Source of the DNA: Parcubacteria group bacterium LiPW_41
GTDB lineage: Bacteria; Patescibacteriota; Minisyncoccia; UBA6257; GWB1-50-10
Reading direction: 5' to 3'
DNA: 56,006 bases
Assembly: GCA_007375535.1 (NCBI GenBank)
Contig: VMEM01000006.1
Span: forward strand, 1-56,006
Below are positions 18,765 to 53,590 of the stretch, piece by piece. The stretch's first letter is position 1. Every line of letters starts with the position of its first letter. Below the pieces are notes generated by a model. That model had not been told where the DNA came from and did no database searches. It saw only the letters and a program-made list of their open reading frames with translations. A program made the position numbers and the translations under genes.

Positions 18765-18790
18765 CTCCCCAAATGGGGAGATTTTTTTAT
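18765..18790. terminator. Terminator between convergent genes
   Basis: CTCCCC-AAAT-GGGGAG followed by a T-run. Confidence 0.75.
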
Positions 18791-19557
18791 TTTAAATATC
18801 CAATTTTTTTTAACCACTCCTCATGTTCCCATTCCCACAAACGTTTTGCGCCGAGAAATGCTTCAAAATCGTTTTCAACATTATGAAGTTCCTTTAGTTC
18901 AATATATCCAACGAGTGGGCCAAACTCATGTTTACACGAACGCATAAAGGGGTCATCCCATTTAATTTTTACCTGCTCACGCCCACCTTTTGCACGGAGC
19001 GCTGCACCACAATTCATACAAAGTCGACTCTGATCGATTCGTAATATCCAACGGGTAGAGAGTTCTGGAAATAATTCTTTCATTGCATAAAAATATGCGG
19101 AGGTTTGAATATTATAATCCCGATAAATCTCTTGCGAAGTCTTAATGTCCAGTATTCCAAGCTTTCCTCCAATACGCGCAATTGCATCAAGCGTTCCCGC
19201 ATATTTATGTTCATCACTTTTAAGTCGAACCTCAACATGTTTTGGATCAACCTCAATATTATTATCAAGAAGATACTCTGCAAACGCTGCCATTGATGGG
19301 GTAATAGAGTAGGGAATAACTGGCTTCTGCCCCATAAGAATTGCCTCAGCCGCCTCATGAATCATTGTTCCTTCTACTGCTGACTGTTCTTTTACCTGTT
19401 CCGCCGCACGATAATTGGGCATCTTTGCATAAAAATAATAGAGTGCTGGCTTCGCTTTAATCTCAACAATTTTTGTCACTCGGGGATACCACACATCGTT
19501 TTCTAGAGTATATCCACATGCATCTTTAAATTCATCCGGAGTTTTGAAGTCATCCAT
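18787..19557 (-). CDS. PD-(D/E)XK nuclease (AddB/Cas4/phage exonuclease-like)
   Basis: YPRVT.I, GTMIHE, E, YAGTLDA, DIKTS, Q.SAY motifs; start taken at 19557. Confidence 0.85.
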   Translation of the reverse strand: MDDFKTPDEFKDACGYTLENDVWYPRVTKIVEIKAKPALYYFYAKMPNYRAAEQVKEQSAVEGTMIHEAAEAILMGQKPVIPYSITPSMAAFAEYLLDNNIEVDPKHVEVRLKSDEHKYAGTLDAIARIGGKLGILDIKTSQEIYRDYNIQTSAYFYAMKELFPELSTRWILRIDQSRLCMNCGAALRAKGGREQVKIKWDDPFMRSCKHEFGPLVGYIELKELHNVENDFEAFLGAKRLWEWEHEEWLKKIGYLK

Positions 19558-19658
19558 ATTATCCAATTGTATCAGTGTTTTTCTCTTGCTTGTATTGACA
19601 CAAATAGACAATTATATTAGTATCACCTAGCACATTAAATCACTAAATCGGAGGCTTC

Positions 19659-19873: not shown

Positions 19874-20143
19874 ATGTATTACAAACTTAGGTACCCACTA
19901 AAAAAACCTGGTGTCAAAGAACCGGAAGGAAAGACAACTATCTCGGGACGAAAAAAAGATATTTTTGTTCATACATTCCAGGCAGATAGTATTACAAAAG
20001 CAAAAGAACACGCAAAAGAACACCTTAACTCTGCAGCAAACGACGACGTACTCGGTAAAGGCAAAATAACATTGTGTGAAGGAATATCGGCATACAAAGG
20101 ACACTTCCAAGTGACAAAAAAAATTCCATTCACATACAAATAA
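19874..20143 (+). CDS. Small basic hypothetical protein
   Basis: AGGAGG SD at 19864-69; terminator follows. Confidence 0.68.
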   Translation: MYYKLRYPLKKPGVKEPEGKTTISGRKKDIFVHTFQADSITKAKEHAKEHLNSAANDDVLGKGKITLCEGISAYKGHFQVTKKIPFTYK

Positions 20144-20149
20144 CAATTA

Positions 20150-20176
20150 CCCCGCGCAATGCGGGGCTTTTATTTT
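20150..20176 (+). terminator. Intrinsic terminator
   Basis: CCCCGC-GCAAT-GCGGGG followed by T-runs. Confidence 0.75.
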
Positions 20177-20423
20177 AGACAAATAGTACCTTAATGTGTT
20201 ATTTCATGGAAATGCGGGGGAGTACCACAAATAATGAATTAACATAAAAATAAGAACATTAAATTATTTTTTGAAAACAAATTTTCTATAGAAATTATTT
20301 TAAAGATAGAAAGTAAAATAAATACCACAAACAAAGTGGATCATAGGTGGAAAACCATATTTAAATAAGTGTTGGAAAACCCGAGGGGAAGTGTGAAAAA
20401 CACTAGTATTCTGACGTTTAGAT

Positions 20424-20451
20424 ATGTCGCACAATATACCTTTTGCGACAT
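20424..20451. other. dif-like tyrosine-recombinase site (11-6-11)
   Basis: ATGTCGCACAA-TATACC-TTTTGCGACAT; arms inverted with 1 mismatch; spacer resembles the E. coli dif spacer; sits at the gene-polarity switch. Confidence 0.55.
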
Positions 20452-20551
20452 TAGTATGTAATTACTAATGTCACAAATACATGCTTAATCCTTTTACGAC
20501 GAGATTTATTTAGTCGTAAAAGGATAGTTTGCGACAGTACCGGATAAACAA

Positions 20552-20579
20552 AAAATCTGTCATTGCAATGACAGATTTT
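20552..20579. terminator. 28-bp perfect palindrome, probable terminator of the long - strand operon
   Basis: AAAATCTGTCATTGCAATGACAGATTTT. Confidence 0.6.
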
Positions 20580-20600
20580 ATTTTCTACAACAACTCTATC

Positions 20601-21032
20601 TTATACCATCTCAATAATCTTTCGCATAATTTCGAAAATATATTTAATAAATTGTCTCACTATGTCTGTCGCGCGCCCAACAAAATCTGGCGCATCAGCA
20701 GGATTTGTGCTGCCGATAAGCCCTGAGACCCGTTCCAATAGGTTCATTGTGTATTCTGGTGTTATTTTCTGCGAAGATCCTGCATTGACGCCTGGCAGTG
20801 CCTGTCCTGTGGCCATTTTTTCAATATCAACTCCAAACTTTGATTCCATTTTCTTTTTTGCTTGGTCAGCAATATCAAATACTTCTTTTACTGGCTCAGG
20901 AAGAAAACTTTTTAAAATTATCTCAAGCGGATTCGTCGAACTTGTTGTTTGAGCATTTACATTGTTTGAAACAAAAAAGGAACTCAAAAACAAAAGTGTT
21001 ACCATTGCGTTACATAGAATTATTTTTTTCAT
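20601..21032 (-). CDS. Secreted hypothetical protein
   Basis: Signal peptide MKKIILCNAMVTLLFLSSFFVSNNVNA|Q. Confidence 0.75.
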   Translation of the reverse strand: MKKIILCNAMVTLLFLSSFFVSNNVNAQTTSSTNPLEIILKSFLPEPVKEVFDIADQAKKKMESKFGVDIEKMATGQALPGVNAGSSQKITPEYTMNLLERVSGLIGSTNPADAPDFVGRATDIVRQFIKYIFEIMRKIIEMV

Positions 21033-21040
21033 ATATAATT

Positions 21041-22366
21041 TTATTTGCATCCAGAATCTCTCCCATGTGGATATCCAACAAGAGACGGAAGATATGTTGC
21101 CGGATCAATGGTGACACCAATCGGCACAACTCCAGCTGCTGGTGGTATTACTTTATATTGTAACGTAGGGGCCCACAAAACACCAAAATGTAAATGTGGC
21201 CCAAATGAATAACCAGTATTACCCGAATATCCTATTATCATTCCTTTTTCCACTCGATCTCCCTCTTTTACTGACTGCGAAGAAAGATGGGCATAAATGG
21301 TGGCAAGATTATTGTCATGTTTTATAACAACATATTTTCCATATTGATATTTTGTCCATCGAGTTTTTCCTCGATCGTTATTCCCTACCTTTACAATTTT
21401 TCCTGATTCAACTGCAAGAATGGGAGTTCCAACTGGTGTTCCAAAATCAACTCCGTTATGCGATTTTGTTTTGTACAATTTCTGTGCTGAAGGAGTCTTT
21501 CCATAACACTGCGTTACATATGGTGACTCAACTGGAAAATCCAAAACTCCAAATCGTTGAATTGGTAAAAGATTTGGGTTGAATCCAGAGCGCAGCTTGT
21601 CTTCTACTGCAGCAATTGCATTTCCAATTTCTTCCTGCTTCTTATCAAGTTCTTCAAGTTGTTTTGCATACAGTTGCTCTTGTGATTTTGTAACCTCAAG
21701 AATTTTTTGTTTTTCTGCTTTTTGTTCCGCAGTTATTTGTTGCAAAGATTGTAACGTCTCTTTTTGTGTTTCTTTTTGTCCTTTCTTTTGTTTTGTTAAT
21801 TGAAGCTTATCTTTGTATTCAACTTGTAATGATTGTAAATCTTTTATATTAGTTGACAAAGCAGAATTAAGTGTTTTAATAGTTTCAATTTTTTCGATAC
21901 TATCACTCAAGGATTCACTCTTTAACAATCGCTCAATAAATGACTCACTATCTGCCTGTTGTAACTCCCCTACTAATCTTCCAATAGCTATTCTCTTTGT
22001 CTCGATTTCATTGGCGATATTACGAATATCACTGCCTAAAACACCAATTTCCATATCAAGCTTTTCAATATGAACCGAACTTGATTTTATAGAAAGATTC
22101 AATTGATTAATACTTGTATTGTAAACTTGAATATCTTTTTTTAATGAATTTCCAACCTCACTTACCGCATCAAGTGAGCGCTGCAAAAGATCTCTTTGTT
22201 CTTTTATTTTTTCGAGCTCACTACTTTTTTCTTGAATATTTTTTTCTAAATCACCAAGCGCATTAGAAAAAAAAGAAAACGGAGAAGACTGCGCAAAGAC
22301 ACTATTAAAAAGAAAAAAGACAACAACGGCTACGCTCGCGATACATAATCTAAGCGTTTTTTTCAT
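21041..22366 (-). CDS. Coiled-coil + M23 peptidase (EnvC/PcsB-like murein hydrolase)
   Basis: Signal peptide, long coiled coil, H.G.D (HNGVD) and HxH (GPHLHF) zinc motifs. Confidence 0.9.
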   Translation of the reverse strand: MKKTLRLCIASVAVVVFFLFNSVFAQSSPFSFFSNALGDLEKNIQEKSSELEKIKEQRDLLQRSLDAVSEVGNSLKKDIQVYNTSINQLNLSIKSSSVHIEKLDMEIGVLGSDIRNIANEIETKRIAIGRLVGELQQADSESFIERLLKSESLSDSIEKIETIKTLNSALSTNIKDLQSLQVEYKDKLQLTKQKKGQKETQKETLQSLQQITAEQKAEKQKILEVTKSQEQLYAKQLEELDKKQEEIGNAIAAVEDKLRSGFNPNLLPIQRFGVLDFPVESPYVTQCYGKTPSAQKLYKTKSHNGVDFGTPVGTPILAVESGKIVKVGNNDRGKTRWTKYQYGKYVVIKHDNNLATIYAHLSSQSVKEGDRVEKGMIIGYSGNTGYSFGPHLHFGVLWAPTLQYKVIPPAAGVVPIGVTIDPATYLPSLVGYPHGRDSGCK

Positions 22367-22367
22367 A

Positions 22368-23753
22368 TTAAGAAATTTTTTGAATCGCAATTTCTATCCT
22401 CTTTTCGGCTTCACTAGATCCAAGTACCGTTAAAAGTTCAATTGGTCCAGGTGAATTTTGAAGTCCAGAAAGCGCAACACGAAGTGGCCACAATACATTT
22501 CCCTTTCCTTCCTTTGTTGCATACTCCATTATTTGCGTAGCACTATCTCCCCCTTTTCTGAGAATGGTCAAAATTTCTTCTAAATGCTTCTTTGATTCCG
22601 AAAGTGGCAGATCTTTCCACATAAGAAGTTGAGAATCATATGAAATAATCTCAAAAAATGGACGCGCCTCAATTCTAAAATCGCTTAATTTTTTCATTCG
22701 CTCCCGAGCAAGCTCAACTGCTCGAGAAAGTTTTTCCTTGTTGGATTTCCATTCTTCAGGAATGAATGTGAGTACTTGTTCAACAAGATCAGGAAGTGGA
22801 ACCATTCGTATGTGCATAGCATTCAGCCAATCAAGTTTTTCAGTATTGTATACTGCACCAGCTTTTTGAACTCGTTTGAGAGAAAATTCTTTTTTCATCT
22901 CTTCGACAGTTAATATTTCTCGATCATTTTCTGGATGCCAACCCAACAAAACAAGAAAATTCAAAACCGCAGAAGGAAGATATCCCTCTTCACGATATTT
23001 ATTCAATGCGTCTTGAATAAACCTCTTTGAAAGTTTCTTTTTGTTTGCATCTAAGATAAGTGGCAAGTGCCCATACTGAACGTGTGGGAAACCAAGCAAA
23101 TCCTGAATCACAACTTGCTTTGGAGTATTTGGTAAATGCTCCTCTCCACGGATGACATGGGTAATTTTTGTTTCATGATCGTCAATTACTACTGCAAAAT
23201 TATAAAGAGGCTCTAAAAGATTTTTTGCAATAATGATATCACCAAATAATTTTGTCTCGAAACTAACCTTTCCACGAATTACATCATTAAATACAACTGT
23301 TTCTTCTGGCATTTTAATTCTAATAACAGAACTAAGCGCCATTTTCTTTTGCTCTTCGATATCTTTTGCGCGAGAACGACATCGCCCGCTATACTTCGGT
23401 ACCAATCCCTGACTCATTTGCGCTTGATATTCCGCCTCAAGATCTTCTTCGGAACACGTGCAACAATATGCTTTTCCTTCTTCGATAAGCTTCAAAAGAT
23501 AGTTTTTGTAGGTTTCCGTACGTTCACTTTGACGCCAAATTGGCTCATCGGAATATATTCCAAACCATTCAAGGTTTTTAATAATATCGTCTTCAAAGCG
23601 CTTTTCTGAACGCTCTTTGTCTGTATCTTCAATACGCAAAATAAACTTTCCACCCTCTTTTTTAGCGAAAAGCCAGTTAAATAGCGCTGTTCTAACACCC
23701 CCAATATGTAGAAATCCTGTCGGCGATGGTGCAAAACGTACACGAACACTCAT
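22368..23753 (-). CDS. gltX: Glutamate--tRNA ligase
   Basis: RVRFAPSPTG.LHIGG, RIEDTD, KLSKR. Confidence 0.97.
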   Translation of the reverse strand: MSVRVRFAPSPTGFLHIGGVRTALFNWLFAKKEGGKFILRIEDTDKERSEKRFEDDIIKNLEWFGIYSDEPIWRQSERTETYKNYLLKLIEEGKAYCCTCSEEDLEAEYQAQMSQGLVPKYSGRCRSRAKDIEEQKKMALSSVIRIKMPEETVVFNDVIRGKVSFETKLFGDIIIAKNLLEPLYNFAVVIDDHETKITHVIRGEEHLPNTPKQVVIQDLLGFPHVQYGHLPLILDANKKKLSKRFIQDALNKYREEGYLPSAVLNFLVLLGWHPENDREILTVEEMKKEFSLKRVQKAGAVYNTEKLDWLNAMHIRMVPLPDLVEQVLTFIPEEWKSNKEKLSRAVELARERMKKLSDFRIEARPFFEIISYDSQLLMWKDLPLSESKKHLEEILTILRKGGDSATQIMEYATKEGKGNVLWPLRVALSGLQNSPGPIELLTVLGSSEAEKRIEIAIQKIS

Positions 23754-27599: not shown

Positions 27600-28646
27600 T
27601 TATATAAACCGAGCGATGAAAAACAACGCAAGACCAACAGTAGTGGTTACTGCGGTAATAAACCAAAAACGCATTGTAATTTGTGTTTCTGGCCATCCGA
27701 GAGCTTCAAAATGATGATGTATTGGCGTAGAAAGAAAAATTTTCTTTTTTCGTATCTTTTTACTTAACATTTGGATGATCACAGTTATCGATTCAAACAC
27801 AAGAATTGATCCAAAGAATGGAAGAAAGAAAACGCTATTGGTGAGCATCGCCATTGCACCAACGGTGATTCCTAGCGACATCGAACCAGTGTCCCCCATA
27901 AAAAACCGAGCGGGATAAATATTAAACCAAAGAAACGCAAGAAGCGCACCTAAAATTACCGCGTTCATCGCTGCAAGATCAAAATGCTTAATAGTAAATG
28001 CAATAACGGTAAACGCCCCAAAAATAAAGAATAATGTTCCACCAGCAAGTCCATCAAGTCCATCAGTTTCATTTGTTGAAAATGCAGAAGCAATAATAAC
28101 AAACATAAATAATGGAATATACCACCAACCAATAATTACATCACCGAGAAAAGGAATATAAATCGAATTCCATCCGAGACGGAAATAAAACCACCACGCA
28201 CCAACAGCAGAAACGACAGTGTACATGAGAATTTTATGCCTCATACTGAGCCCCCCACCCTTAGGACCAATACGCAAAACACCCAAAAAATCATCAATCA
28301 AACCAACAATTGCTGCGAATAGAAGATACCCAAGTGGAAGATATGTTTCTGATCTACTAATGAAGTTAAAATAATTTGCAAATCCACCAAATAATTCTCC
28401 AAAAATAAAAAATAATAATGCTAATAGTATAACCGTACCCCAGATAATAACGCCTCCCATAGTTGGAGTTTCCCCTTTATTTTTATGAAATTGATGAAAC
28501 ACTGGGGCAGTTTCTGCATCCCGAATATTTTTCTTTTTTATTCCAAATTTCATCAAAATCCTTAAAACAATCGGAGTAATCATAAGAGCCACCACAAACG
28601 AAAGGGCAAATAATATAAGAACACGAATTGCTTCAAATGCTACCAT
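27600..28646 (-). CDS. mraY: Phospho-N-acetylmuramoyl-pentapeptide transferase
   Basis: K..TPTMGG, GLIDD, N.TDGLDGLA, FMGDTGS, P.HHHFE. Confidence 0.97.
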   Translation of the reverse strand: MVAFEAIRVLILFALSFVVALMITPIVLRILMKFGIKKKNIRDAETAPVFHQFHKNKGETPTMGGVIIWGTVILLALLFFIFGELFGGFANYFNFISRSETYLPLGYLLFAAIVGLIDDFLGVLRIGPKGGGLSMRHKILMYTVVSAVGAWWFYFRLGWNSIYIPFLGDVIIGWWYIPLFMFVIIASAFSTNETDGLDGLAGGTLFFIFGAFTVIAFTIKHFDLAAMNAVILGALLAFLWFNIYPARFFMGDTGSMSLGITVGAMAMLTNSVFFLPFFGSILVFESITVIIQMLSKKIRKKKIFLSTPIHHHFEALGWPETQITMRFWFITAVTTTVGLALFFIARFI

Positions 28647-28654
28647 AGTCGTAA

Positions 28655-29569
28655 TTATTTTTTCTCCTCAGGATATGCCGACTGAATCCAATCAAACAAT
28701 TTTTCCTTTGTGTTTACCCTATCATAACTTCCTAAAATTATACAAACAACACGTTCCCCGCGAAACGTGAAAAAACCAAGTATATTCTCTCTCGCCTCAG
28801 GAGATGTCCCTGTTTTTCCACCAAGAAAAGAGAAGTCTTTTATAAAAGGATTTACATTGTAAACAATTCTGCTTTCAGAACTATTTGTCGCTTGAGCAAA
28901 AAAACTCTGCAAACGAGTTAGACTCAAAATTTCTGGATGTTTCTCTGCAATATACCGAGCAAGTTTTATAAGATCATTTGGCGTTGAAACATTTTTAGGA
29001 GAAATTCCGGAAGCATCCTCAAGAAATGTATCATTCATTCCAATCTCTATTGCTTTTTTATTTAATAACGAAACAAATGCCACACGTCCACCTGCAACTT
29101 CTTCAATTGCTGTTGCAGCATCATTTGATGATGCTAACAATAAAATAGTAATTAAATCTTGCCCAGAATACACTTCACCGCTTTTGAATTCACCAGACAA
29201 CCCTTCGGTTTCAAGTGCAACTTTTGAAATCGGTATTTTCTTTTGAATACCAATATCTTCAATAAGAACAACTGTTGTAAGAAGTTTTGTAATTGATGCA
29301 ATTGGCCATTTTTTATATGTCTGATAATTCAAATAAGAAAAATTAGAATCAAGAGAGTAAACCATTGCTCCTTCCCCATTGATAACAGGGTCCGAAATAT
29401 TCCAATCTCTCGTTGGATATTTTTTTTGTTCTTTTTTTTCTGAAAGCACTATTTCTTCCTGACTTTTATTTACTTCATCTTTTTTTTCGTCTTTAACAAA
29501 AAAATTAGAAACTACAACCGAAACAATAAGGAGACAAATAAGTAAGAAAAACTGAACATGTGATTTCAT
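28655..29569 (-). CDS. D-Ala-D-Ala carboxypeptidase (peptidase S11)
   Basis: SxxK (ASITK), SxN (SSN), KTG motifs; N-terminal anchor. Confidence 0.9.
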   Translation of the reverse strand: MKSHVQFFLLICLLIVSVVVSNFFVKDEKKDEVNKSQEEIVLSEKKEQKKYPTRDWNISDPVINGEGAMVYSLDSNFSYLNYQTYKKWPIASITKLLTTVVLIEDIGIQKKIPISKVALETEGLSGEFKSGEVYSGQDLITILLLASSNDAATAIEEVAGGRVAFVSLLNKKAIEIGMNDTFLEDASGISPKNVSTPNDLIKLARYIAEKHPEILSLTRLQSFFAQATNSSESRIVYNVNPFIKDFSFLGGKTGTSPEARENILGFFTFRGERVVCIILGSYDRVNTKEKLFDWIQSAYPEEKK

Positions 29570-29573
29570 GAAA

Positions 29574-30182
29574 TTACTGAGTTATTTCCTTTGCAGGTTC
29601 GTCAAACGGCGTCTCGGACACTTTTTCTTCTTTTTCCAAAACTGGCGTCTCCTCCATTGTGCGAGCAAACGTCTCAAGAAGTGTGTGATATCGATCGTAT
29701 TCTGGGAGCATTTTTATGTTCGAGATACCAATATGCTTTAAAAATTCTTGTGTTGGAGCATATCGAAACGAAGCGCCCTTCTCTTCTCCGCGCTCCACAA
29801 GTCCACGCATTGAAAGGTTCCGTATGGAATAACTTGAATTTACCCCACGTATATAATCAACAGTCGCCCGAGTTACTGGACCAAGATAAGAAACAAGAGC
29901 AAGTGTTTCGAGTGCCGCGGGAGTAAGCGACTCACGAAATTCATCTTTAACAATGGCCTCGCCAATTTCCTTTAACTCTGGCTTTGTTGCAAGTTGTATT
30001 GAGCTACCCCTTCTTAAAACAATGAGCCCTCTCTCATTTGATGAAATAAGTATCTGCTCGTAATGTGACACCACTGCCTCACACTCTTCTAAAGAAATGC
30101 CAAGCATTCGAGCAATTGTTGTTAATTCAATTGGCTCACCAAAGAAAAATAACAATGCTTCAAGTTTTGCTGAAAGTTCCAT
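29574..30182 (-). CDS. scpB: SMC-Scp complex subunit ScpB
   Basis: LEALLF, AALETLA.V.Y..PVTR..VDYIRGVNS, Y..T..FL..IG. Confidence 0.95.
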   Translation of the reverse strand: MELSAKLEALLFFFGEPIELTTIARMLGISLEECEAVVSHYEQILISSNERGLIVLRRGSSIQLATKPELKEIGEAIVKDEFRESLTPAALETLALVSYLGPVTRATVDYIRGVNSSYSIRNLSMRGLVERGEEKGASFRYAPTQEFLKHIGISNIKMLPEYDRYHTLLETFARTMEETPVLEKEEKVSETPFDEPAKEITQ

Positions 30183-30190
30183 ACTTTATA

Positions 30191-30949
30191 TTATTCTACC
30201 TTTAACTCACCCATCTTCGCAATCGTAATTTCACTAAAATGATCTCCCTGCTCTACTCTCACGATCTGCTGTTTAATAAGATGAAGTATTGCTAAAAACA
30301 ACACTACAAGTTCTGTTTTACTTCCCTCACCATGAAGTTCACGAAGATTTTTGGGTGCGTTTGTAAGTTTTGCTATAACTTCTTCAATTTTTGTGCGCAA
30401 ATTGAGAATTTGATTTTTTACTCTAACCTTAGGAGTCATTGCAACCTCAAGTGCTCCAGAAATTTTTAATATCGCCCCCAATAACTCATTTGGACCAACC
30501 TGCGATGGTGGATAAAATATTGTAGGAGCAGAAAGCATAAACTCACGAGTGTACATTTTTGGCATTTCGCTCCACTGTGCACGAATATATTCCTGTGTTT
30601 TTTTGAATTCCTGATACAACTTCAGTCGAACCTCAAGATCTTGTATCTCTTCTTGTTCCTCTTGAGTTAACTCAAGCGACGGAAGAAGTGTTTTTGACTT
30701 AATCAATAACAACCTTGATGCAACGACGAGAAAATCAGCAAGAAGTTCAAGTGGTGCATTATACTGCACTTGTTCATCAACCACTTTTTCATCAATTCCA
30801 AAATCAATTTTAAATCCTTCAAGATATTGTAAAAAATCAGCCGTAACACTTGCAAGCGCAATAGTGCTGATTTCCATTTTTTTTGATTCAATAAGTTCTA
30901 ATAACTTATCGAGTGGACCTTGGTAGTGATCGAGTTTTAATTCGTACAT
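30191..30949 (-). CDS. scpA: SMC-Scp kleisin ScpA
   Basis: Y.GPLD.LL.LI, DFLVVAS.LLLIKSK.LLP, FLAILHL.K. Confidence 0.93.
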   Translation of the reverse strand: MYELKLDHYQGPLDKLLELIESKKMEISTIALASVTADFLQYLEGFKIDFGIDEKVVDEQVQYNAPLELLADFLVVASRLLLIKSKTLLPSLELTQEEQEEIQDLEVRLKLYQEFKKTQEYIRAQWSEMPKMYTREFMLSAPTIFYPPSQVGPNELLGAILKISGALEVAMTPKVRVKNQILNLRTKIEEVIAKLTNAPKNLRELHGEGSKTELVVLFLAILHLIKQQIVRVEQGDHFSEITIAKMGELKVE

Positions 30950-30988
30950 ATGAATAAGTCTAACTCTACTTCTTTCAGTATACCGCAA

Positions 30989-34727: not shown

Positions 34728-35414
34728 ATGACATATAATAACTCAATAAAAGAAAAAGTGGTAACTTTGAGAAAAAGTGGCCTTTCCTATTCTGAGATAC
34801 TCAAAAAAATCCCTGTTGCAAAATCAACACTGGCGGCATGGCTTCAGTCGGTCAACTTATCTAAAAAACAGAAACAACGACTAACCGAGCGAAAAAAACA
34901 AGCGCAACTTCGTGGCGCTTTAGCAAGAAAAGATATACGCATTCAAAATACTAAGAAAATATTTATTGAGGCAAAAAAAGACATACCAAATATTATAAAA
35001 GATCCTTTTTGGATTTCTGGAATTCTCCTTTATTGGGCAGAGGGATCAAAACAAAAAGAAAACAACCCATCTTCAACAATGCGTTTCTCTAATTCTGATC
35101 AAAAAATGATCAGACTCTTTCTTGAATGGTCAAAAAAATATTTAAACTTAAAATCTAGTGATTTTGCTTTTGATTTATACATACATAAAACTGGAGATTT
35201 AGAAAAATCTCTCATTTTTTGGACCAATATTATTAATTGCAAAAAAGACGATATCCATGTATATTTTAAAAAGCATCAACCAAAAACAACACGAAAGAAT
35301 GTGGGAGAAAATTACCATGGGCTTATTCGAATAAATCTACGTAAAAGTACAAATTTATATCGGAAAGTTGATGCATGGATATCCCATTTGTGTGAATATT
35401 GCGGGATCGTCTAA
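34728..35414 (+). CDS. HTH + single-motif LAGLIDADG-like protein
   Basis: N-terminal HTH (LRKSGLSYSEI...VAKSTLAAWL), GILLYWAEG motif, FSNSD..MI..FL.W; last 5 codons lie inside tRNA-Gln. Confidence 0.7.
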   Translation: MTYNNSIKEKVVTLRKSGLSYSEILKKIPVAKSTLAAWLQSVNLSKKQKQRLTERKKQAQLRGALARKDIRIQNTKKIFIEAKKDIPNIIKDPFWISGILLYWAEGSKQKENNPSSTMRFSNSDQKMIRLFLEWSKKYLNLKSSDFAFDLYIHKTGDLEKSLIFWTNIINCKKDDIHVYFKKHQPKTTRKNVGENYHGLIRINLRKSTNLYRKVDAWISHLCEYCGIV

Positions 35415-35470
35415 CGGTAGGACAGCGGACTTTGAATCCGTCAATCTAGGTTCGATTCCTAGTCCCGCAG
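35400..35470 (+). tRNA. tRNA-Gln(TTG)
   Basis: Acceptor TGCGGGA/TCCCGCA, anticodon arm GCGGA-CTTTGAA-TCCGT, GGTTCGATTCC T-arm; CCA not encoded. Confidence 0.96.
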
Positions 35471-35473
35471 CAT

Positions 35474-35522: not shown

Positions 35523-36665
35523 CTATTTCCACTCTTTTGCCACCTGCCATTTTATATTTAACATAGCACCAAGAGTTATAGCAGCAGAAACGCATATTAT
35601 TATCCAACCCATAAAAGGTATTAAACCAAGAAGCATATAAATCACCACTCCAAGTAAAATAGTTTTCCAGTTAACAATATATTCTGATTTGCTAATCCAC
35701 CTATAAACAAGAGAACCCAAAAATAGTGGGGTTAGTATTGATGCAAAAACAAAGAGGATAATAAACGAAAGCAATCCAATTATTCCAAAGGGAATTCCAA
35801 TAATAGTAACAAGGAGAATGATTGAAAGTATCGGAAGAACAATGAGAGTCACAATTCCTCGTCCCAACTCTTTAAGAGGATTTGCTGTTGCCTTTTCCAC
35901 AAGCTCTTTACTATATTTAGTGAAAATAAGTCCAATAACAAGGGATGAAACTAATAATGTCACAAATTTAGTAAGAAGTGCGAAATCAAAAAAACCAAAT
36001 ACTCCATTTGTGTCTTTTCTCCCTCCTTTGTTTCTTTTTATTTCGGTGAAAGACGTTTCTCCGCTAACTTTTCCTCCCTCCTCAATAGTAACGGGTTTTG
36101 TTGCTTCATATTTGAGGTTTCCTTTTATGTTTGCGTTTGGACCCAAAGTAAGATTTTCAGCCTTGATGTCTACATTGCCATCGATAGGTGCATTGATATA
36201 AATTTTTCCACCAGCAATTTTTGCCTTACCTTTAACTTCGGAATCCACTCTCACCGTTCCACCAGCAATCGCGACATCTCCACCCACTGATTTACCAGAC
36301 AAGGTTATTTGTCCCCCACCTATAACGGCGTCACCCGCAATATCACCAGTTATTATGATAGTTCCACCACCTATGCGCACGTCTCCAAGAATCTGACTTG
36401 AAACTGTTACATTACCTCCTACTGCAAATAAATCACCTGCAACCGGCCCAGATATAAGAGCTGTACCACCAGCAACAAGAAGATCTTTTTCTATACTTCC
36501 TGCACTAATAACAGTTCCGCCAGCCATATAAAGATTCCCCTCTGTTTTCTCTTGGGAGGTAAAAGACGACTGCTCTCCCGCTCGAAATTCCGCAGCAAAT
36601 AGTGCACCGGGAAACACGAGTAAGAATAAAGCTAATACAACAAGAGCCTTATTAAAATTTTTCAT
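35523..36665 (-). CDS. Bactofilin/polymer-forming beta-helix protein with C-terminal multi-TM domain
   Basis: Signal peptide, repeated G.V.GD...AGG.V units, about 4-5 C-terminal TM helices. Confidence 0.8.
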   Translation of the reverse strand: MKNFNKALVVLALFLLVFPGALFAAEFRAGEQSSFTSQEKTEGNLYMAGGTVISAGSIEKDLLVAGGTALISGPVAGDLFAVGGNVTVSSQILGDVRIGGGTIIITGDIAGDAVIGGGQITLSGKSVGGDVAIAGGTVRVDSEVKGKAKIAGGKIYINAPIDGNVDIKAENLTLGPNANIKGNLKYEATKPVTIEEGGKVSGETSFTEIKRNKGGRKDTNGVFGFFDFALLTKFVTLLVSSLVIGLIFTKYSKELVEKATANPLKELGRGIVTLIVLPILSIILLVTIIGIPFGIIGLLSFIILFVFASILTPLFLGSLVYRWISKSEYIVNWKTILLGVVIYMLLGLIPFMGWIIICVSAAITLGAMLNIKWQVAKEWK

Positions 36666-36745
36666 ATGGTTATTATATAACAGATACACCCCCTCAATAC
36701 AATTTTAAGATTGGAGGTATTTCTTAACTAACATATAATACAACT

Positions 36746-38233: not shown

Positions 38234-38791
38234 ATGGTGGAGCAAAATCCAGAACTAAGCGACGAAATTATTGCCGCTCGAATCCAGCAAGGAAATACAG
38301 ATGCTCTCGGATTATTAATTGATCGATACGAGATAAAACTGAAACGCTATGGAATGCGCTTTTTGGTATACGATGACGATATCGAAGATGCCGTCCAAGA
38401 AATTTTTATCAAATCATATCAAAATATTCAAAGCTTTGATGCAAATCGAAAATTCTCATCATGGATTTACCGCATTGCACACAATGAGTTTATAAATCAC
38501 ATCCGAAGACACGCTCGCGATCCACTTCCCTTTCTTGATTTTGAAGTTGATACATTAATACCTCATCCGTTTTCCAACGATACACCCGAAAGCGATCTCG
38601 AGAAAAAAGAAACGAGAGAGTTAATGGATAGAGCACTCAAAAAACTTTCCCCAAAATACCGCGAAATTCTCCTTCTCTTCTACTACGAAGAACTCTCATA
38701 TGAAGAAATTGCTGAAATTTTGCGAATACCAAAGACAACGGTGGGAGTACGATTAAGTCGAGCAAAGAAAGAATTAAAAAAATATCTATGA
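38234..38791 (+). CDS. ECF RNA polymerase sigma factor
   Basis: Region 2 (DAVQEIFIK.Y....FD....FSSWIYRIAHN) and region 4 (LSYEEIAEIL.IP..TV..RLSRAK). Confidence 0.93.
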   Translation: MVEQNPELSDEIIAARIQQGNTDALGLLIDRYEIKLKRYGMRFLVYDDDIEDAVQEIFIKSYQNIQSFDANRKFSSWIYRIAHNEFINHIRRHARDPLPFLDFEVDTLIPHPFSNDTPESDLEKKETRELMDRALKKLSPKYREILLLFYYEELSYEEIAEILRIPKTTVGVRLSRAKKELKKYL

Positions 38792-39489
38792 CACATATAA
38801 AAGAAACAATATTAAAAAAGATTCACGAACGTGAAGTCATAATGAAACCACGGTGGCCTTTTGTGCTTCGTGGAATACTGACACTTATACTTGCCTGCAC
38901 CATCATTTTTTTTGCTATATTCGTAATTATCATACTCACCTTGTCACTCAAAGAAACAGGAATGATGCACCTCCCCGTTTTTGGAGTACCGGGACTGTTT
39001 CATTTCCTTATTAATCTTCCATGGCTTATTATACTTGGCGTATTTATTGCACTTATTATTGTAGAAATATTGTTTAGAAAATTTTCATTTGGATATCGAA
39101 CACCAGCTATCATAACATTAGGCGTCATTGGCGTTTCAACAGTTCTTGGAGGGATTTTCCTTTCATCTATCGGACCAAAAAATGTTACAAAACAAATTCG
39201 TGATAGCAATTTTGTACGACTTCAAATGCATGAAGGTCCTGAGTTTAGAAAACAACGACCACTTACTCACGGAATAATTCGGACATTGAACAGTTCTGAT
39301 ATGTCCATTGAAACAGAAGATGAAACACTAAAAGTGATATTTAATGATTCAACACAATTTCCCGATGGAAAGGAAATACTTTCGATTGGATCATCAGTGT
39401 TTGTCGGTGGTCTGCGCAGTGGAGACACTATAAACGCATTCGGTATATCAAACGAACCTCCTGAATTACGTTTTCCAAAATATAAATAA
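38788..39489 (+). CDS. Membrane protein with C-terminal OB/DUF5666-like domain; putative anti-sigma
   Basis: ATGA overlap with the sigma gene; 3 TM helices; beta-rich C-terminus. Confidence 0.65.
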   Translation: MTHIKETILKKIHEREVIMKPRWPFVLRGILTLILACTIIFFAIFVIIILTLSLKETGMMHLPVFGVPGLFHFLINLPWLIILGVFIALIIVEILFRKFSFGYRTPAIITLGVIGVSTVLGGIFLSSIGPKNVTKQIRDSNFVRLQMHEGPEFRKQRPLTHGIIRTLNSSDMSIETEDETLKVIFNDSTQFPDGKEILSIGSSVFVGGLRSGDTINAFGISNEPPELRFPKYK

Positions 39490-39523
39490 TTAAAAAATAC
39501 CCCCGTTATGCGGGGGTTTTTGA

Positions 39524-39670
39524 TTACATATAGACACGCATGTAGCGCGCATCTATAGGCCACTCTTCGGGTGTACCAAAGTCTGACTTTTCTTGTTCTT
39601 CATGAACATTATTGACTTCTTTTTTCTCTTCTTGAGAAGTCGTTGGGGTATTATCGTCAGTGCGTTCCAT
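39524..39670 (-). CDS. 48-aa acidic microprotein (not in the ORF track)
   Basis: MERTDDNTPTTSQEEKKEVNNVHEEQEKSDFGTPEEWPIDARYMRVYM*; GGAG SD; flanked by hairpin terminators. Confidence 0.5.
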   Translation of the reverse strand: MERTDDNTPTTSQEEKKEVNNVHEEQEKSDFGTPEEWPIDARYMRVYM

Positions 39671-39747
39671 AACTACTCCATTTATTTAGTTGTTAAAAAG
39701 CAAAAACCCTCCATTTTTGTGGAGGGCATAAATTCGGTATTATCTGA

Positions 39748-39846
39748 CTACTTTCGAATTTTTTTCTCCACAGGCCTACTTCCCACAATAATAATGAGGG
39801 TAAGGACAAGCACTATAAGAATTGAGACAAAAATCGAAATTGCCAT
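39748..39846 (-). CDS. 32-aa single-TM microprotein (alternative start 39867)
   Basis: MAISIFVSILIVLVLTLIIIVGSRPVEKKIRK*; TGG-TATACT -10 upstream; terminator at about 39703-39727. Confidence 0.55.
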   Translation of the reverse strand: MAISIFVSILIVLVLTLIIIVGSRPVEKKIRK

Positions 39847-39896
39847 TACAAAATCAGTATACCACATATATTCACTTTTGTGATAGTATATGAATA

Positions 39897-40247
39897 ATGA
39901 GGCAATTCATAGAGAGTTTTAGTCATGCATTCGATGGTCTTTGTTTTGTATGGAAAGAAGAAAAAAACTTTAGAATTCAAGTTATTATCGGAATTCTTGT
40001 AATTGTTGTAATGGGAATATTTGGATTCTCCTACTTAGAAATGAGTATGTTTATTGTAGCAATTACATTAGTTCTTACCGCAGAAACAATAAACACCACA
40101 TTTGAAGATACACTTAACAAGATACAACCGGAACATGATCCAGTCGTTGGAAAAATTAAAGATATTTCCGCTGGGATAGTAGTGCTTTGTGTATTGGGTG
40201 CAATTTGTATAGGAATTCTCATCTTTCTCTCTCATTTTTCCTTCTAA
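39897..40247 (+). CDS. dgkA: Prokaryotic diacylglycerol/undecaprenol kinase family
   Basis: SF.HAF.G....W.EE.NFRIQ, E.INT..E, KIKDISAG.V. Confidence 0.9.
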   Translation: MRQFIESFSHAFDGLCFVWKEEKNFRIQVIIGILVIVVMGIFGFSYLEMSMFIVAITLVLTAETINTTFEDTLNKIQPEHDPVVGKIKDISAGIVVLCVLGAICIGILIFLSHFSF

Positions 40248-40268
40248 TTTCTGCTACAATTAATAGTA

Positions 40269-41699
40269 ATGGATCTGGTAAGACTCTTAACAAGAGAGGA
40301 ATCTATTGCTGGAATTGAGATTAGTGACACACATGTTCGTGTTGCTCTTTTTCGTACATCACACGAAAAAACTGAAATTTATAATTTAGAATATTTTGGA
40401 GAGGAGGCCCTAGAAAAAGGGGTTATTACCGAAGGAGTAATTACGAATGAGCCGGCTCTTTTACAAGCAATTCGCGCAGTACTTAAAAAATCAAAAAAAA
40501 GAATTCGCTATGTAGTTGTTTCACTTCCCGCATCGTTGGGTTTTTATAAAACATTTTCTTTTCCTAAAAATATTTCTCTAGAAAAACGAGAAGAAAGTAT
40601 GCGTATTGCATCTGAGTTTCAACTTCCACTCCAAAAAGATCAGATATATGTTGACTGGGAAGAAATTAAAGGAATTCGCGATAATACTATCGAACAAATA
40701 CTTGTTGCAGGAAATAAGGAAAAAATTGATGCATACAATTCTCTTCTGGTTAAACTTAAACTTCATGTAATCGCTATCGAAACACACCCACTAAGTATCG
40801 CAAGAATTCTTCAAATAAGTGAGACGCCAGAACTTTTTGCAATTCAAGAAACAACTGATACCGCGCTCATGATAGTACAAAATGGAGCGCTCAGATTCGT
40901 GAGAACTCTCCCAAAAATATTTTTTGATGGTGGAGGAAATATAAAAGAAGAAATTGAACGAATTTCTGACTTTTTTGAAGTTGAATATGGGGTCAGACCA
41001 AAAATACGTGAAATAAAAACTATTCGTCTTGGAGAGCAATTTTCAAACACCGCAAAAGAATTAATCTCTGGAGATATGTGCGCGGTTGCGGGCGCAGCAC
41101 TCCGTGGCGCACTTCCAAGAAACACAGATACTGAGGTAAGCCTAATCCCCGTTGGAACCGAAGAGGCATACGAACTTGAAAAAGCAAAAGCATTTGCCAC
41201 ATTTATATTAAATATTTCTGTTGCAGTAATGATATTCTTTGTTGTTGCATATATCGGAGCATGGCTTATCATGGTTCAAATTCAAAACACAGCAACGAAT
41301 AGATTTACACAAGTGAATAGCACCCCAGCACCAGAAGGAGCCGCTGAGTTCGAAACACGCGCAATACGCCTTAACAACTATCTTGATGTGAGTGATGCAA
41401 TATTAACCAAATCCCCTCGTTGGAGTCTTGTTATTGAGTCTCTAACAAAATTAGTTCCTCAAGGCGTCACTATCCACACCATTTCTCTTCCTGCATATAA
41501 CGGACAATTTTCAATAGCTGGCGTTGCTGCAAGTCGACCAATACTAAGTGGATTCCGATCAACACTTGAAACATCTTCCATTTTTTCTAATATCACGCTC
41601 CCACTTTCAAATCTTGATAAAACGGGAGATATTCCATTTTCGATAACTCTATCACTAAAGGAACCAGAGCTTTATTTACTTTCACATTATGCTCAATAG
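40269..41699 (+). CDS. Type IV pilus PilM-PilN fusion
   Basis: N-terminal actin-like PilM region, one TM helix (about aa 310-335), C-terminal PilN-like domain (W...I..L...VP.GV.I..I...F.IAG.A). Confidence 0.7.
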   Translation: MDLVRLLTREESIAGIEISDTHVRVALFRTSHEKTEIYNLEYFGEEALEKGVITEGVITNEPALLQAIRAVLKKSKKRIRYVVVSLPASLGFYKTFSFPKNISLEKREESMRIASEFQLPLQKDQIYVDWEEIKGIRDNTIEQILVAGNKEKIDAYNSLLVKLKLHVIAIETHPLSIARILQISETPELFAIQETTDTALMIVQNGALRFVRTLPKIFFDGGGNIKEEIERISDFFEVEYGVRPKIREIKTIRLGEQFSNTAKELISGDMCAVAGAALRGALPRNTDTEVSLIPVGTEEAYELEKAKAFATFILNISVAVMIFFVVAYIGAWLIMVQIQNTATNRFTQVNSTPAPEGAAEFETRAIRLNNYLDVSDAILTKSPRWSLVIESLTKLVPQGVTIHTISLPAYNGQFSIAGVAASRPILSGFRSTLETSSIFSNITLPLSNLDKTGDIPFSITLSLKEPELYLLSHYAQ

Positions 41700-42252
41700 A
41701 AAAGTACTTATTTCTTATATCATCAAACTTTCAATCTTTTTTTTGATACTCTTAAGTATCTCTATTGGGATTATAGTATTTCTTCGAATAAGAATAGAAA
41801 AAATCCAAACAACGCTCCAAGAAAACCAGCGCCTTATTCGTTCACTTGAAAGACGCGGAGAGACAATCTCAGAACTACGAAAACAATTTGAAGAAATAAA
41901 AACAACCGACACCACGATAATTGATGCGTTTCCATATTCCGATGATATCTTAAGTACTATCAATTCAATAGAACTTATTGCAAACACACACGGACTCCAG
42001 ATTGTTAAACAATTTGGAACTCCAACACTGTTTATGACAATTCCTGATGGAACAAAAATCTCAGTAATTCCTTTTTCGCTTTCTCTTCAAGGAAATGTAA
42101 ATTCACTTACAAAATTTTTAAGTGCAGTTGAATCACTTCCCTATTTTGTTAGTATCTCTTCAGCATCGCTTCAATCTCAATCTACCTCAGATTGGAACAA
42201 TATATCTAGCATATCACTGAGTGGTTCTTTATATACACGGGAACGAGAATAA
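41689..42252 (+). CDS. PilO-like pilus assembly protein
   Basis: TM + coiled coil + ferredoxin-like F.L.L.G....L..FL..VE.LP. Confidence 0.65.
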   Translation: MLNRKVLISYIIKLSIFFLILLSISIGIIVFLRIRIEKIQTTLQENQRLIRSLERRGETISELRKQFEEIKTTDTTIIDAFPYSDDILSTINSIELIANTHGLQIVKQFGTPTLFMTIPDGTKISVIPFSLSLQGNVNSLTKFLSAVESLPYFVSISSASLQSQSTSDWNNISSISLSGSLYTRERE

Positions 42253-42257
42253 ACACT

Positions 42258-42830
42258 ATGAACAAAAATATTAAAAAATATATATATCCGTCGATAACTG
42301 TGTTTGTAATATTAGTTATTATTGGTGCTTTTGTTTTTTCCGCCCTTTTTATTACAAAATCTATTGATGCGGCGCTCATCTCCGAACAAGAATCCCAAAC
42401 AAAAGACCTCCAGATAAAAATGCAAGCACTTGAAGCAGCAAGACAAAAGCTTTCTCTTGAAAATTTGGATATACCAATAAATATCTCTACAACAACCGAA
42501 ACTACCATTTCAACTACAACAGAGGAAGAAAAAATCGTGGAAAACAAAACACTTCTTTCTCTAGCAGTTCTCAATAGCACTGGAATTCCTGGAAAAGCTG
42601 GAGAACTTGCAAAATTAATAAGTACTTCTGGATTTAAGGTTTCCTTTACTGGAAATGCAAAAAAATTAGAACCAACAACGGTTATTCAAATTAAAGAGAC
42701 ATCTAAAAAAATATTCCCTGAATCACTAAAAGAGTTGTTCAGTGTAGTAAGAGGTAGATATTCAGTTACCGAATCTATTCTTGAAGAGAATTCCGAATAT
42801 GATGCAATCGTTATAATTGGAACTAATTAG
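42258..42830 (+). CDS. LytR C-terminal-domain membrane protein
   Basis: VLNSTGIPG.AG.....I...GF.V...GNA...D..VIIG. Confidence 0.75.
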   Translation: MNKNIKKYIYPSITVFVILVIIGAFVFSALFITKSIDAALISEQESQTKDLQIKMQALEAARQKLSLENLDIPINISTTTETTISTTTEEEKIVENKTLLSLAVLNSTGIPGKAGELAKLISTSGFKVSFTGNAKKLEPTTVIQIKETSKKIFPESLKELFSVVRGRYSVTESILEENSEYDAIVIIGTN

Positions 42831-50556: not shown

Positions 50557-51189
50557 TTATACGTTAAATTTGAATGATTTAATTATTGAATCAGCCTCTT
50601 CGTATGTCTTAATAAGTTGATCTTTTAACTCTTCAATCTCAGGAAATTTTTTGCTATCAAAATGACGATTTATGTGGACCCCAAGCTCCAAAGGAGAAAC
50701 AACCTTTGTAAACCAAACCTCTTTATATTTTTCTTTTTGATTATCTAGAGTAAATTGAATACCAACATCTAAAACATCTCTTGTTTCTGACTTCCCCATT
50801 TTAAACATTGATGAATAAATTTCTTTTATCGGAACCAATGTGTTGAATCGATAATAAATATCAAAATTGAATCCATAGGCAACAATCGGAATAGTATCAA
50901 AAAGCGCCTCCTTAATTTTGTGAAGTTGGTATGGAAGCATTGAAACCTGTAATTCACGTTTCGATTCATCTTCAATTCGTACGCGATGCCCTTCGAGGAT
51001 AATACGTGATTCAAAATGAGGAACAACAAGAACTTTTGAATTCATAACAGGGTTATCAATAAAACGAATTCCTGTCGCTTCGATTCCACTAAAAACACTT
51101 GCAAACTGACTATTATCAGGTGCTTTAAATTTTGATTCATCAAACAATATAGCAATGTTGGTGTGATAGAGAGATTTAGAAGTAATCAT
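50557..51189 (-). CDS. Hypothetical cytoplasmic protein inside the pilus locus
   Basis: 210 aa, no TM; AYGFNFD pattern loosely TIGR04255-like. Confidence 0.65.
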   Translation of the reverse strand: MITSKSLYHTNIAILFDESKFKAPDNSQFASVFSGIEATGIRFIDNPVMNSKVLVVPHFESRIILEGHRVRIEDESKRELQVSMLPYQLHKIKEALFDTIPIVAYGFNFDIYYRFNTLVPIKEIYSSMFKMGKSETRDVLDVGIQFTLDNQKEKYKEVWFTKVVSPLELGVHINRHFDSKKFPEIEELKDQLIKTYEEADSIIKSFKFNV

Positions 51190-51247
51190 TATTAATGGTT
51201 TTTATATGTTGTAGTAAGTATTACGCATAGAAAATAAATTGTGAAGA

Positions 51248-51895
51248 CTAACACCCACTACAAATCGTTAGCGTTGTTGTTGCATTGATATTTGTTTTTG
51301 AGCTATATGTTGTTACTGGACAAGTACCCGTTGCAGTCGAAGTCGACATCCAAGACCCCTGTGCACATGTCTTATTTCTCCAGCGTGATATGAATCCTTT
51401 TATTACCGTTGGAGCAGTCGAGGTGGTAGCTACAGTCACAGTAACCTGCTCTGTCGCTGGATCAAACACCCCCCCACTTGTAGTACACGTTGTACCGGCA
51501 CCAGATGTATCGGTAACTCCAGTTATATTTCGCGTTGAAGTGCTCCTGCAAATATTTTGAATAGTAAACGATCGTGAATAGGAATCATTACTTATACTCA
51601 CCACTTCTGTTCCGGTAGCAACAATCCACTTTCCCCCTGATTTTTGCGGATAATATGGCGAAGCGGTGTCAGACTTCGTGAGTAAATAAATGTTCTGCCA
51701 TTTCTCAGTAACGATACTCTCAACTGCAGTAAGTGTCTCTTCAGCGAGCCCTAGTGCAGTATTTTCCGCTCCTGTTGATTGGTTGCTTCTTAACCCAACA
51801 TACACAAGTTGTGAACCAAGTGCCAAAAGCCCAACCCCGGCTGCAACAGCAATAATGATTTCTATGAGTAATTGTCCTGATCTATTATTTCTCAT
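51248..51895 (-). CDS. PilV-like minor pilin
   Basis: G|QLLIEIIIAV motif with Glu5; Cys-bridged C-terminus. Confidence 0.8.
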   Translation of the reverse strand: MRNNRSGQLLIEIIIAVAAGVGLLALGSQLVYVGLRSNQSTGAENTALGLAEETLTAVESIVTEKWQNIYLLTKSDTASPYYPQKSGGKWIVATGTEVVSISNDSYSRSFTIQNICRSTSTRNITGVTDTSGAGTTCTTSGGVFDPATEQVTVTVATTSTAPTVIKGFISRWRNKTCAQGSWMSTSTATGTCPVTTYSSKTNINATTTLTICSGC

Positions 51896-52353
51896 TGATA
51901 AATAAGTCCAGATGTCGCGACATTAATTGATTTGGTAAGCGTATCACGACGAAGCACAATAGATGTAGATGTGGTATTTCCTGAAATTTTGCTAAACACA
52001 ACATCAAGTGAAGTGGAAGATGTCGGAGTGTCAAACGAAATAACAGAATTTAAATATGTTGTTGATACAATAGTGCTTGATACGCCACCGTACACCGTTG
52101 GAGTACTAAATAATTCATAATAATCCTGCGAAGCATTTGTAAATCGGATTCCCCACTTCATTTGATTTTTTCCTGCAAGTGCATTTTCGCGCGCCAATTT
52201 TAAATCAGCAACAATTGCTTTTGCTGTTTCATCCAATTCTATACCACGAGAAAATTGAATATAAAACCCAGAACCTATTGCTCCTATAACTGCAATAACT
52301 GCAATAGTAAGTAAGAGCTCTAACAGTGAAAATCCGCTTTTTTTATTTTTCAT
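51892..52353 (-). CDS. FimT/GspH-like minor pilin
   Basis: G|FSLLELLLTIAVI; DL..AR..A...WGI.F. Confidence 0.88.
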   Translation of the reverse strand: MKNKKSGFSLLELLLTIAVIAVIGAIGSGFYIQFSRGIELDETAKAIVADLKLARENALAGKNQMKWGIRFTNASQDYYELFSTPTVYGGVSSTIVSTTYLNSVISFDTPTSSTSLDVVFSKISGNTTSTSIVLRRDTLTKSINVATSGLIYQ

Positions 52354-52359
52354 AATCTA

Positions 52360-53586: not shown

Positions 53587-53590
53587 ATTT

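Follow-up and report, generated by a model that had tools for sequence, protein, structure and literature searches.

A 28-bp sequence in a gene-free gap of this contig, consisting of two 11-bp inverted arms around a 6-bp centre, is probably the chromosomal dif site of this CPR (Paceibacterota-type) bacterium, a reading to which we give a probability of roughly 70%. This reading draws on the architecture of the site, its strict conservation as DNA, its near single-copy state, its independence of the neighbouring transcripts and the linkage of an Xer gene to it elsewhere in the CPR. From these we infer Xer binding and catalysis, dimer resolution, any control by FtsK and a position at the terminus. 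An earlier note on this DNA had proposed a dif-type Xer site, which is borne out here by other evidence than the note had used: conservation, Xer linkage, a direct-repeat module and an inversion that pivots on the site.

The window analysed is the whole contig of 56,006 bases (GC 36–37%), whose proteins are most like those of Candidatus Paceibacterota MAGs (CPR/Patescibacteria group). The coordinates of the site and of the features around it, together with those of the recombinase genes found near it in other contigs, are collected in the table below. Inside 20144–20600 no ORF of at least 45 aa is contained, the longest being 30–44 aa; a 65-aa ORF starting at 20529 exits the gap. The 450-bp gene-free gap described earlier is therefore confirmed, as is the convergence of genes on it, with the + strand gene ending at 20143 and the - strand gene at 20601. 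Each flanking transcript has its own terminator-like hairpin, and the site lies within the ~385 bp outside both transcripts. Compared to shuffles, the gap shows no excess of promoter-like matches.

Table. Features of the window and of related contigs (coordinates are those of the window unless a contig is named).
Feature	Coordinates	Strand	Remarks
28-bp dif-like site	20424..20451	.	28-mer ATGTCGCACAA-TATACC-TTTTGCGACAT
Left (conserved) arm	20424-20434		ATGTCGCACAA
Central region	20435-20440		TATACC
Right (variable) arm	20441-20451		TTTTGCGACAT
Terminator-like hairpin and T-run	20150..20166	+	ends the 89-aa gene; left gap boundary
Bidirectional terminator-like hairpin	20552..20579	.	ends the - strand operon; right gap boundary
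89-aa ORF without Pfam match	19874..20143	+	last left-hand gene, converging on the site
149-aa small secreted-type protein gene	20601-21050	-	
M23 peptidase gene	21041-22390	-	with the 149-aa gene converges on the site; syntenic anchor, outside the site
Strain-variable 85-bp segment	20465..20549	.	extra half-site copies in alternating orientation
Xer-family recombinase	L058 10840-11790		
Xer-family recombinase	L137 10001-10951		
Xer-family recombinase	L138 10001-10942		
Xer-family recombinase	L008 2337-2948		

To the right of the site runs a - strand operon with ychF, scpA, scpB, a D-Ala-D-Ala carboxypeptidase gene, mraY, an amidohydrolase-like gene, ftsW, murG, gltX and the genes for the M23 peptidase and the 149-aa small protein; scpA and scpB thus sit inside a cell-wall/division operon (29574–30988). 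The left-hand side holds secA and small genes, most of them on the + strand. An 89-aa gene was also called at the equivalent position in the related locus L130, likewise oriented towards the site. Exact look-ups of both flanking proteins returned no match, probably as a result of differing called start codons. One left-hand neighbour recurs among loci, a 274-aa protein (18787–19611, - strand) that weakly matches a PD-(D/E)XK nuclease: its family lies beside the site in 22 loci, on the - strand every time, and a second nuclease-like family occurs in 10 more loci, on the - strand and left of the site in 9 of the 10. A purine-rich box (GAGGGGAAGTGTG and variants, 20383–20395) is found about 25–40 nt left of the site and at the equivalent position in L001, L130, L002, L003, L133, L135 and L136, where the remaining spacer is unalignable. 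Elsewhere in the window, type IV pilus genes (a PilM/PilN fusion, a T2SSF platform protein and a T2SSE ATPase) are located at 38234–42830 and 50557–55303. An integrase had been suspected beside tRNA-Gln (35400–35471); the 388-aa - strand neighbour (35523–36689) is bactofilin-like only.

The sequence and pairing of the 28-mer agree with the earlier description. Its arms are complementary at 10 of 11 positions across the 6-bp spacer, in an 11-6-11 layout. The symmetry is concentrated in the outer positions, where all six pairs between positions 1–6 and 23–28 form; between positions 7–12 and 17–22 the count is 4/6, with C9/T20 and T12/C17 unpaired. Kono et al. (2011) call for more than 4/6 complementary pairs in this inner region (PMC3025954), so that the site falls just short of their inner-arm palindrome rule. 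It is identical to E. coli dif at 18/28 positions, to V. cholerae dif1 at 17/28 and to B. subtilis dif at about 16/28 by hand count.

Two arguments of the earlier note did not carry the weight placed on them. The match to E. coli dif is correct as a count, but not as evidence: composition-matched shuffles of the window each give about five matches as good (5–8 of at least 18/28), and the window itself holds a second real 18/28 match at 27377. The symmetry is likewise real, but does not single out the site, since the window contains 10 palindromes of this 11-6-11 type in which 10 or more of the 11 positions pair (1.2 expected), and most of them are terminators. These two observations are what would be expected of a chance palindrome without function. 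That reading is refuted, its probability being practically nil, by the conservation described below, in which 23–28 of the 28 positions are kept where the neighbouring proteins are only 42–82% identical and the intergenic DNA is unalignable.

Relatives were chosen through the neighbouring M23 peptidase, without use of the motif (L001–L003 and L130–L136, n = 10). When species-representative genomes were searched with the M23 peptidase, three Paceibacterota MAGs were recovered (protein identity 80, 62 and 46%), and these carry the site at 28/28 (L001), 27/28 (L002) and 23/28 (L003). Seven further relatives, found by M23 homology only (42–82% identity, GC 33–58%), all have the site, 40–130 bp past the small gene downstream of M23. 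The 28-mer that the earlier note suggested seeking in relatives is therefore present in all ten synteny-derived loci, within about 40–470 bp of the operon end, and as the site or a variant in both of two loci derived from Xer homology (see below). The site is identical in L001 and differs at one to five positions in L002, L003 and L130–L136, with unalignable flanks in each instance. It is important to note that the synteny with the M23-gltX-murG operon is strong, so that these loci are not independent.

In an alignment of 14 loci, the conserved block spans exactly 28 columns. The left arm and centre are almost invariant, reading TGTCGCA(C/T)A(A/T) and TA(T/C)A(C/T)C, and the right arm is more variable, with the form TTTT(G/A)CGACA(T/C). 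Position 9/20 is a conserved asymmetry, at which a pair never forms in the 14 sequences.

Metagenomes were scanned with a 20-nt core pattern of 19 specified bases that left seven right-arm positions free. The core pattern was found in at least 120 metagenome contigs, mostly from groundwater and sediment and with very diverse flanks. Among the matches listed, 119 of 120 contigs hold a single copy, the free right-arm positions 23–26 are still 85–97% conserved, and conservation ends at the edges of the 28-mer. Within the 56-kb contig itself there is no second 28-mer within seven mismatches. In run X4 (mine drainage), read depth is 58 over the 28-mer compared to 2–7 beside it, with many different flanks, which indicates that the 28-mer is common to many organisms in that one sample. 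The M23 gene adjoins the site in 57 of ~125 loci among the matches listed, and the site also occurs in unrelated contexts, such as a group with a gtctagcg flank. These results demonstrate that the 28-mer is real and almost unchanged over more than 100 Patescibacteria (CPR) contigs and MAG loci, of which a few carry organism labels.

Additional half-site sequences are present beside the site in some strains and lineages. The 85-bp segment just downstream is made of copies of the right-arm sequence that alternate in direction, and contains ATGTCACAAA in inverted orientation (20466–20477), a hairpin derived from CCTTTTACGAC (20488–20505/20508–20525) and TTTGCGACA (20528–20536). A related-strain contig in run X4 joins 20464 straight to 20550 and lacks exactly these 85 bp. 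Four of the 14 matches to TTTGCGACA in the window (at most one mismatch) cluster within 112 bp at 20425–20536, and this local cluster is beyond chance. Over the loci at large, an exact repeat of the locus's own variable arm follows no more than 150 bp downstream in 8 of 111 distinct loci and is found upstream in none; a 60-nt inverted-copy test gave a perfect inverted copy downstream in 8 of 116 loci compared to none in the control. The inverted copies track arms that have diverged, as in L003 (CTGACGG/CCGTCAG) and L076 (CCGTCCT/AGGACGG). These downstream copies could serve as accessory or decoy half-sites, or could have arisen by duplication of a palindrome.

A recurrent downstream module was also observed, made up of the inverted variable arm followed by AAAAGGT, a GC-rich stretch of 7–8 nt (N7-8) and TTTTGCRAC, often within a long hairpin. 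It lies within about 100 bp of the variable arm in L003, L017, L035, L076, L100, L105, L115 and L130, as confirmed by regular expression, and was recognised by eye in L133 and L135. The module looks like an inverted pseudo-site with a 10–11-bp centre.

One alternative considered was that the 28-mer is transcribed and forms an RNA hairpin between both terminators, whether as a terminator, a 3' UTR element or a small RNA. An 11-bp stem could fold, alternative pairings are available with the downstream copies at 20463–20477 and 20513–20536, and the perfect inverted copies of the variable arm, found in eight loci, lie downstream and never upstream. Several observations speak against it. A search of the gap against Rfam, at the gathering threshold or at E-values up to 10, gave no relevant match. 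Covariation over the 11-pair hairpin in the 14-sequence alignment is 0.088, compared to 0.084 in shuffles, and hence without excess; the symmetry is maintained through conservation of the sequence itself. Among the pattern-derived sites, covariation appears at the outermost pair 1/28 only (chi-square p = 1.4e-4). The supposed loop, TATACC, shows the same degree of conservation as the stem, there is no T-run after the stem, and several stem pairs are broken in L003 and L135. In addition, L132 has the site turned round with respect to its M23 gene, the orientation is flipped in about 10% of M23-linked loci, and in 9 of 58 M23-linked cases the M23 gene is found on the opposite side. Taken together, the missing Rfam match, the covariation at shuffle level, the broken pairs and the flipped orientation point to a DNA site that is recognised by protein and is independent of neighbouring transcripts. 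An RNA element is accordingly very unlikely.

The next question is which protein would recognise the site. No tyrosine recombinase or Xer gene was found in the 56-kb window, in agreement with the earlier note, and in the window's own lineage none lies within 20–36 kb of the site; in the M23-linked relatives there is no Xer gene within 10 kb. In other CPR contigs, an Xer gene lies beside the site. In the case of L058, a 1.29-Mb contig, a 317-aa recombinase with Phage_int_SAM_1 and Phage_integrase domains is encoded 2.6 kb from the site. Its bit scores are 242.6 with the XerD model and 241.3 with the XerC model, neither of which reaches the family cutoff, and 205 with XerA, which is nearly at cutoff. 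The Xer homologues of L137 and L138 were picked without reference to the site. In L137 the variant ATGTCGCACAATATAACTTTTGCGAAGT (25/28) is found 0.7 kb upstream of the Xer gene, and in L138 the variant ATGACGTACAATAATACTTTTGCGACTA (21/28) is found 1.9 kb upstream, each in a gene-poor gap. By tblastn, a clear Xer homologue (63% identical over 204 aa) was found in L008 at a distance of 1.35 kb, and L034 has only a 55-aa Xer-like fragment at 45% identity near the site. In these five CPR contigs the order is site, variable arm, xer, in constant orientation and on the same strand, with the site 0.7–2.6 kb upstream. The recombinase family is itself very conserved in CPR bacteria, the best 120 cluster representatives being 60–94% identical; the few among them that carry labels are Microgenomates or Patescibacteria. 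A crude motif scan for DnaA, FtsK and GyrA over 1.1 Mb of flanking DNA found none of them, which is a weak negative.

This linkage bears on a second alternative, in which the 28-mer binds some other protein, such as a regulator, or an organiser of the nucleoid or terminus, whose role is linked to the end of the scpAB-mraY-ftsW-murG-gltX-M23 operon, and no recombination takes place. The frequent position downstream of the M23 operon, in all ten synteny-derived relatives and nearly half of the listed loci, agrees with such a factor, as do a dyad symmetry suited to a dimeric binder and a likeness to known dif sites that is at chance level. On the other hand, the site lies between convergent 3' ends, where no promoter needs control, and it also occurs in unrelated contexts and with flipped orientation. 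The Xer gene beside the site in five contigs, and the direct copies flanking a cargo that are described next, also argue against this reading, which we regard as unlikely.

Traces that resemble recombination were seen at two loci. In L051 (1323–3796), two direct copies of the conserved arm and centre, with degenerate right arms, lie 2446 bp apart. They flank a 2.4-kb cargo consisting of a DUF4258/DUF2283 pair, a SAM methyltransferase gene and an 88-nt tRNA, and the arrangement resembles an IMEX element or a dif module. The L051 contig is listed by IMG/VR as a 40-kb viral genome (IMGVR_UViG_3300012202_000004), and two further viral-listed contigs, L126 and L128, carry the site; comparison with PHROGs did not confirm the viral-listed contigs as phages. 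In L131 (16939–20404), the genes scpA-scpB-carboxypeptidase (S11)-mraY are inverted and lie on the other side of the site compared to the window (27600–30988), and the inverted block still points at the site. This is a symmetric inversion with the site as its pivot, the pattern left by an inversion symmetric about a terminus.

The L051 arrangement could also be taken to mean that the 28-mer is primarily an attachment or target site, or a mobile-element end, of CPR integrative elements, with dimer resolution not its primary role. The cargo between direct copies on a viral-listed contig, the two other viral-listed contigs and the presence or absence of the adjacent 85-bp segment between strains would all suit this explanation. 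It is harder to reconcile with the single copy in nearly every listed contig and in the window, with flanks of housekeeping genes in conserved order, and with M23-linked loci that have no accompanying integrase or transposase. Xer-exploiting elements (IMEX) insert at genuine dif sites, so that the explanation largely presupposes a dif site in any case. As a primary role, it is quite improbable.

Whether the dif-like site also marks the replication terminus was assessed from gene orientation and strand composition. The long genes of the window are mostly on the + strand to the left and almost all on the - strand at 20.6–32 kb and 42.8–56 kb. In pooled coding DNA from the about 125–130 loci listed, 70% is on the + strand left of the site and 90% on the - strand right of it. 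Raw GC skew in the window is +0.02 over the 5–10 kb left of the site and lies between about -0.15 and -0.16 right of it, with a cumulative maximum at 17651. When gene strand was controlled for by regression, the replication-type component was -0.003 on the left and -0.092 on the right. The skew change suggested by the spot-checks of the earlier note holds as a significant step (bootstrap 95% interval 0.028–0.141), but not as a change of sign, and at third codon positions skew is negative on both sides of the site.

Pooled over loci, strand-controlled skew is +0.019 (95% interval 0.006 to 0.033) left of the site and -0.024 (-0.048 to 0.002) right of it, intervals that are optimistic given the phylogenetic and syntenic relatedness of the loci. 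A same-strand comparison of - strand genes went in the terminus direction in 20 of 23 loci. Fits to single loci changed sign in 7 of 22 and were noisy and partly contradictory; in the closest relatives, L001 and L130, skew steps the opposite way. In L138 (1–20942), which holds the weak 21/28 variant, skew is +0.08 to +0.30 throughout, whatever the gene strand. This would place gyrA and gyrB there on the lagging strand and the weak variant off any skew switch. Since raw skew is confounded by gene strand and the fits to individual loci are noisy and contradictory, skew was dropped as proof. As to the terminus proposed in the earlier note, the convergent gene orientation and the skew step speak for it, but there is no sign inversion in the window, and L001, L130 and L138 are contrary. 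A terminus position is plausible, at slightly better than even odds.

If the 28-mer functions as dif, one monomer of an Xer-family tyrosine recombinase would bind each 11-bp arm. The two copies of the site on a chromosome dimer would synapse late in division, and sequential strand exchanges across the 6-bp TATACC would convert the dimer to monomers. Of the two arms, the invariant one would have high affinity, as the XerD arm does, and the variable one would be weaker and resemble the XerC arm. Polarity would come from the asymmetric centre together with the conserved C9/T20 mismatch. A single Xer acting on the site would fit the near-symmetric outer arms and the linkage in five contigs; the unequal conservation of the arms and the 9/20 asymmetry sit less well with it.

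A full-text literature search found no paper describing a dif site for CPR/Patescibacteria. If the reading is true, the site provides a one-line sequence marker of the dimer-resolution locus in a very large group that is uncultured and represented almost entirely by MAGs, and would flag the terminus region too if the locus has the terminal position that it has in other bacteria. MAG assemblies could be oriented and checked with such a marker, and integrated Xer-exploiting elements recognised. It would also provide an anchor for growth-rate estimates based on ori/ter, dif being used for growth-rate estimation by GRiD (PMC6251912). The site and a linked Xer gene make up a directly testable pair for biochemistry.

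Several known systems offer comparisons. With IMEX and plasmid dif modules (CTX-phi, the gonococcal genetic island, Acinetobacter pdif), the L051 locus shares direct copies that flank a toxin-antitoxin-type pair, a methyltransferase and a tRNA. According to Kono et al., phage dif-like sites have one degenerate arm (PMC3025954), and the L051 copies are alike in this respect. Unlike IMEX, L051 is a single CPR example in which no excision or integration junctions were seen.

Near-symmetric arms are shared with the single-recombinase systems XerS/difSL (streptococci and lactococci), XerH/difH (Helicobacter and Campylobacter) and XerA/dif (archaea). The proximity of the recombinase gene to the site in five CPR contigs (a fragment only in L034) is also shared, and recombinase-site linkage, which XerS/difSL and XerH/difH typically show, has been put forward as a possible sign of a single-recombinase module (PMC5357621). 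The XerC and XerD models give the CPR Xer equal scores, and its XerA score is just short of the cutoff. In contrast, the CPR centre is 6 bp rather than the 11 bp of difSL, the CPR recombinase has about 315 aa rather than about 355 aa, and the lineage of the window departs from single-recombinase modules in having no Xer gene near the site. One arrangement that would accommodate these features, although it is doubtful when taken as a whole, is an Xer system of the CPR's own. Here, one highly conserved recombinase, as distant from XerC as from XerD, would act alone on both near-identical arms of a CPR-specific dif. An ancestral linked dif-xer module would have been kept in some lineages and separated in Paceibacteria, and the inverted half-site arrays or long hairpins on the variable-arm side would be accessory or regulatory in some lineages.

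With the dif sites of XerC/XerD systems (E. coli, and B. subtilis with CodV/RipX), the CPR site shares a length of 28 bp, two 11-bp arms in imperfect dyad symmetry and a 6-bp AT-rich centre, the counterpart of CPR TATACC being TATACA when E. coli dif is read on the matching strand. It also shares one arm that is more conserved, an intergenic location, convergent gene orientation and conservation throughout the lineage (PMC5357621; PMC3025954). It differs in its conserved arm, which has GTCGCA rather than the canonical TTATGTTAAAT-type XerD arm, in an overall identity that is at chance level, and in being palindromic in the outer arm halves, whereas XerCD dif is palindromic in the inner halves. 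Given that it has the architecture of dif but fails canonical-dif similarity and the inner-arm palindrome rule, the site is best described as a lineage-specific dif of CPR bacteria.
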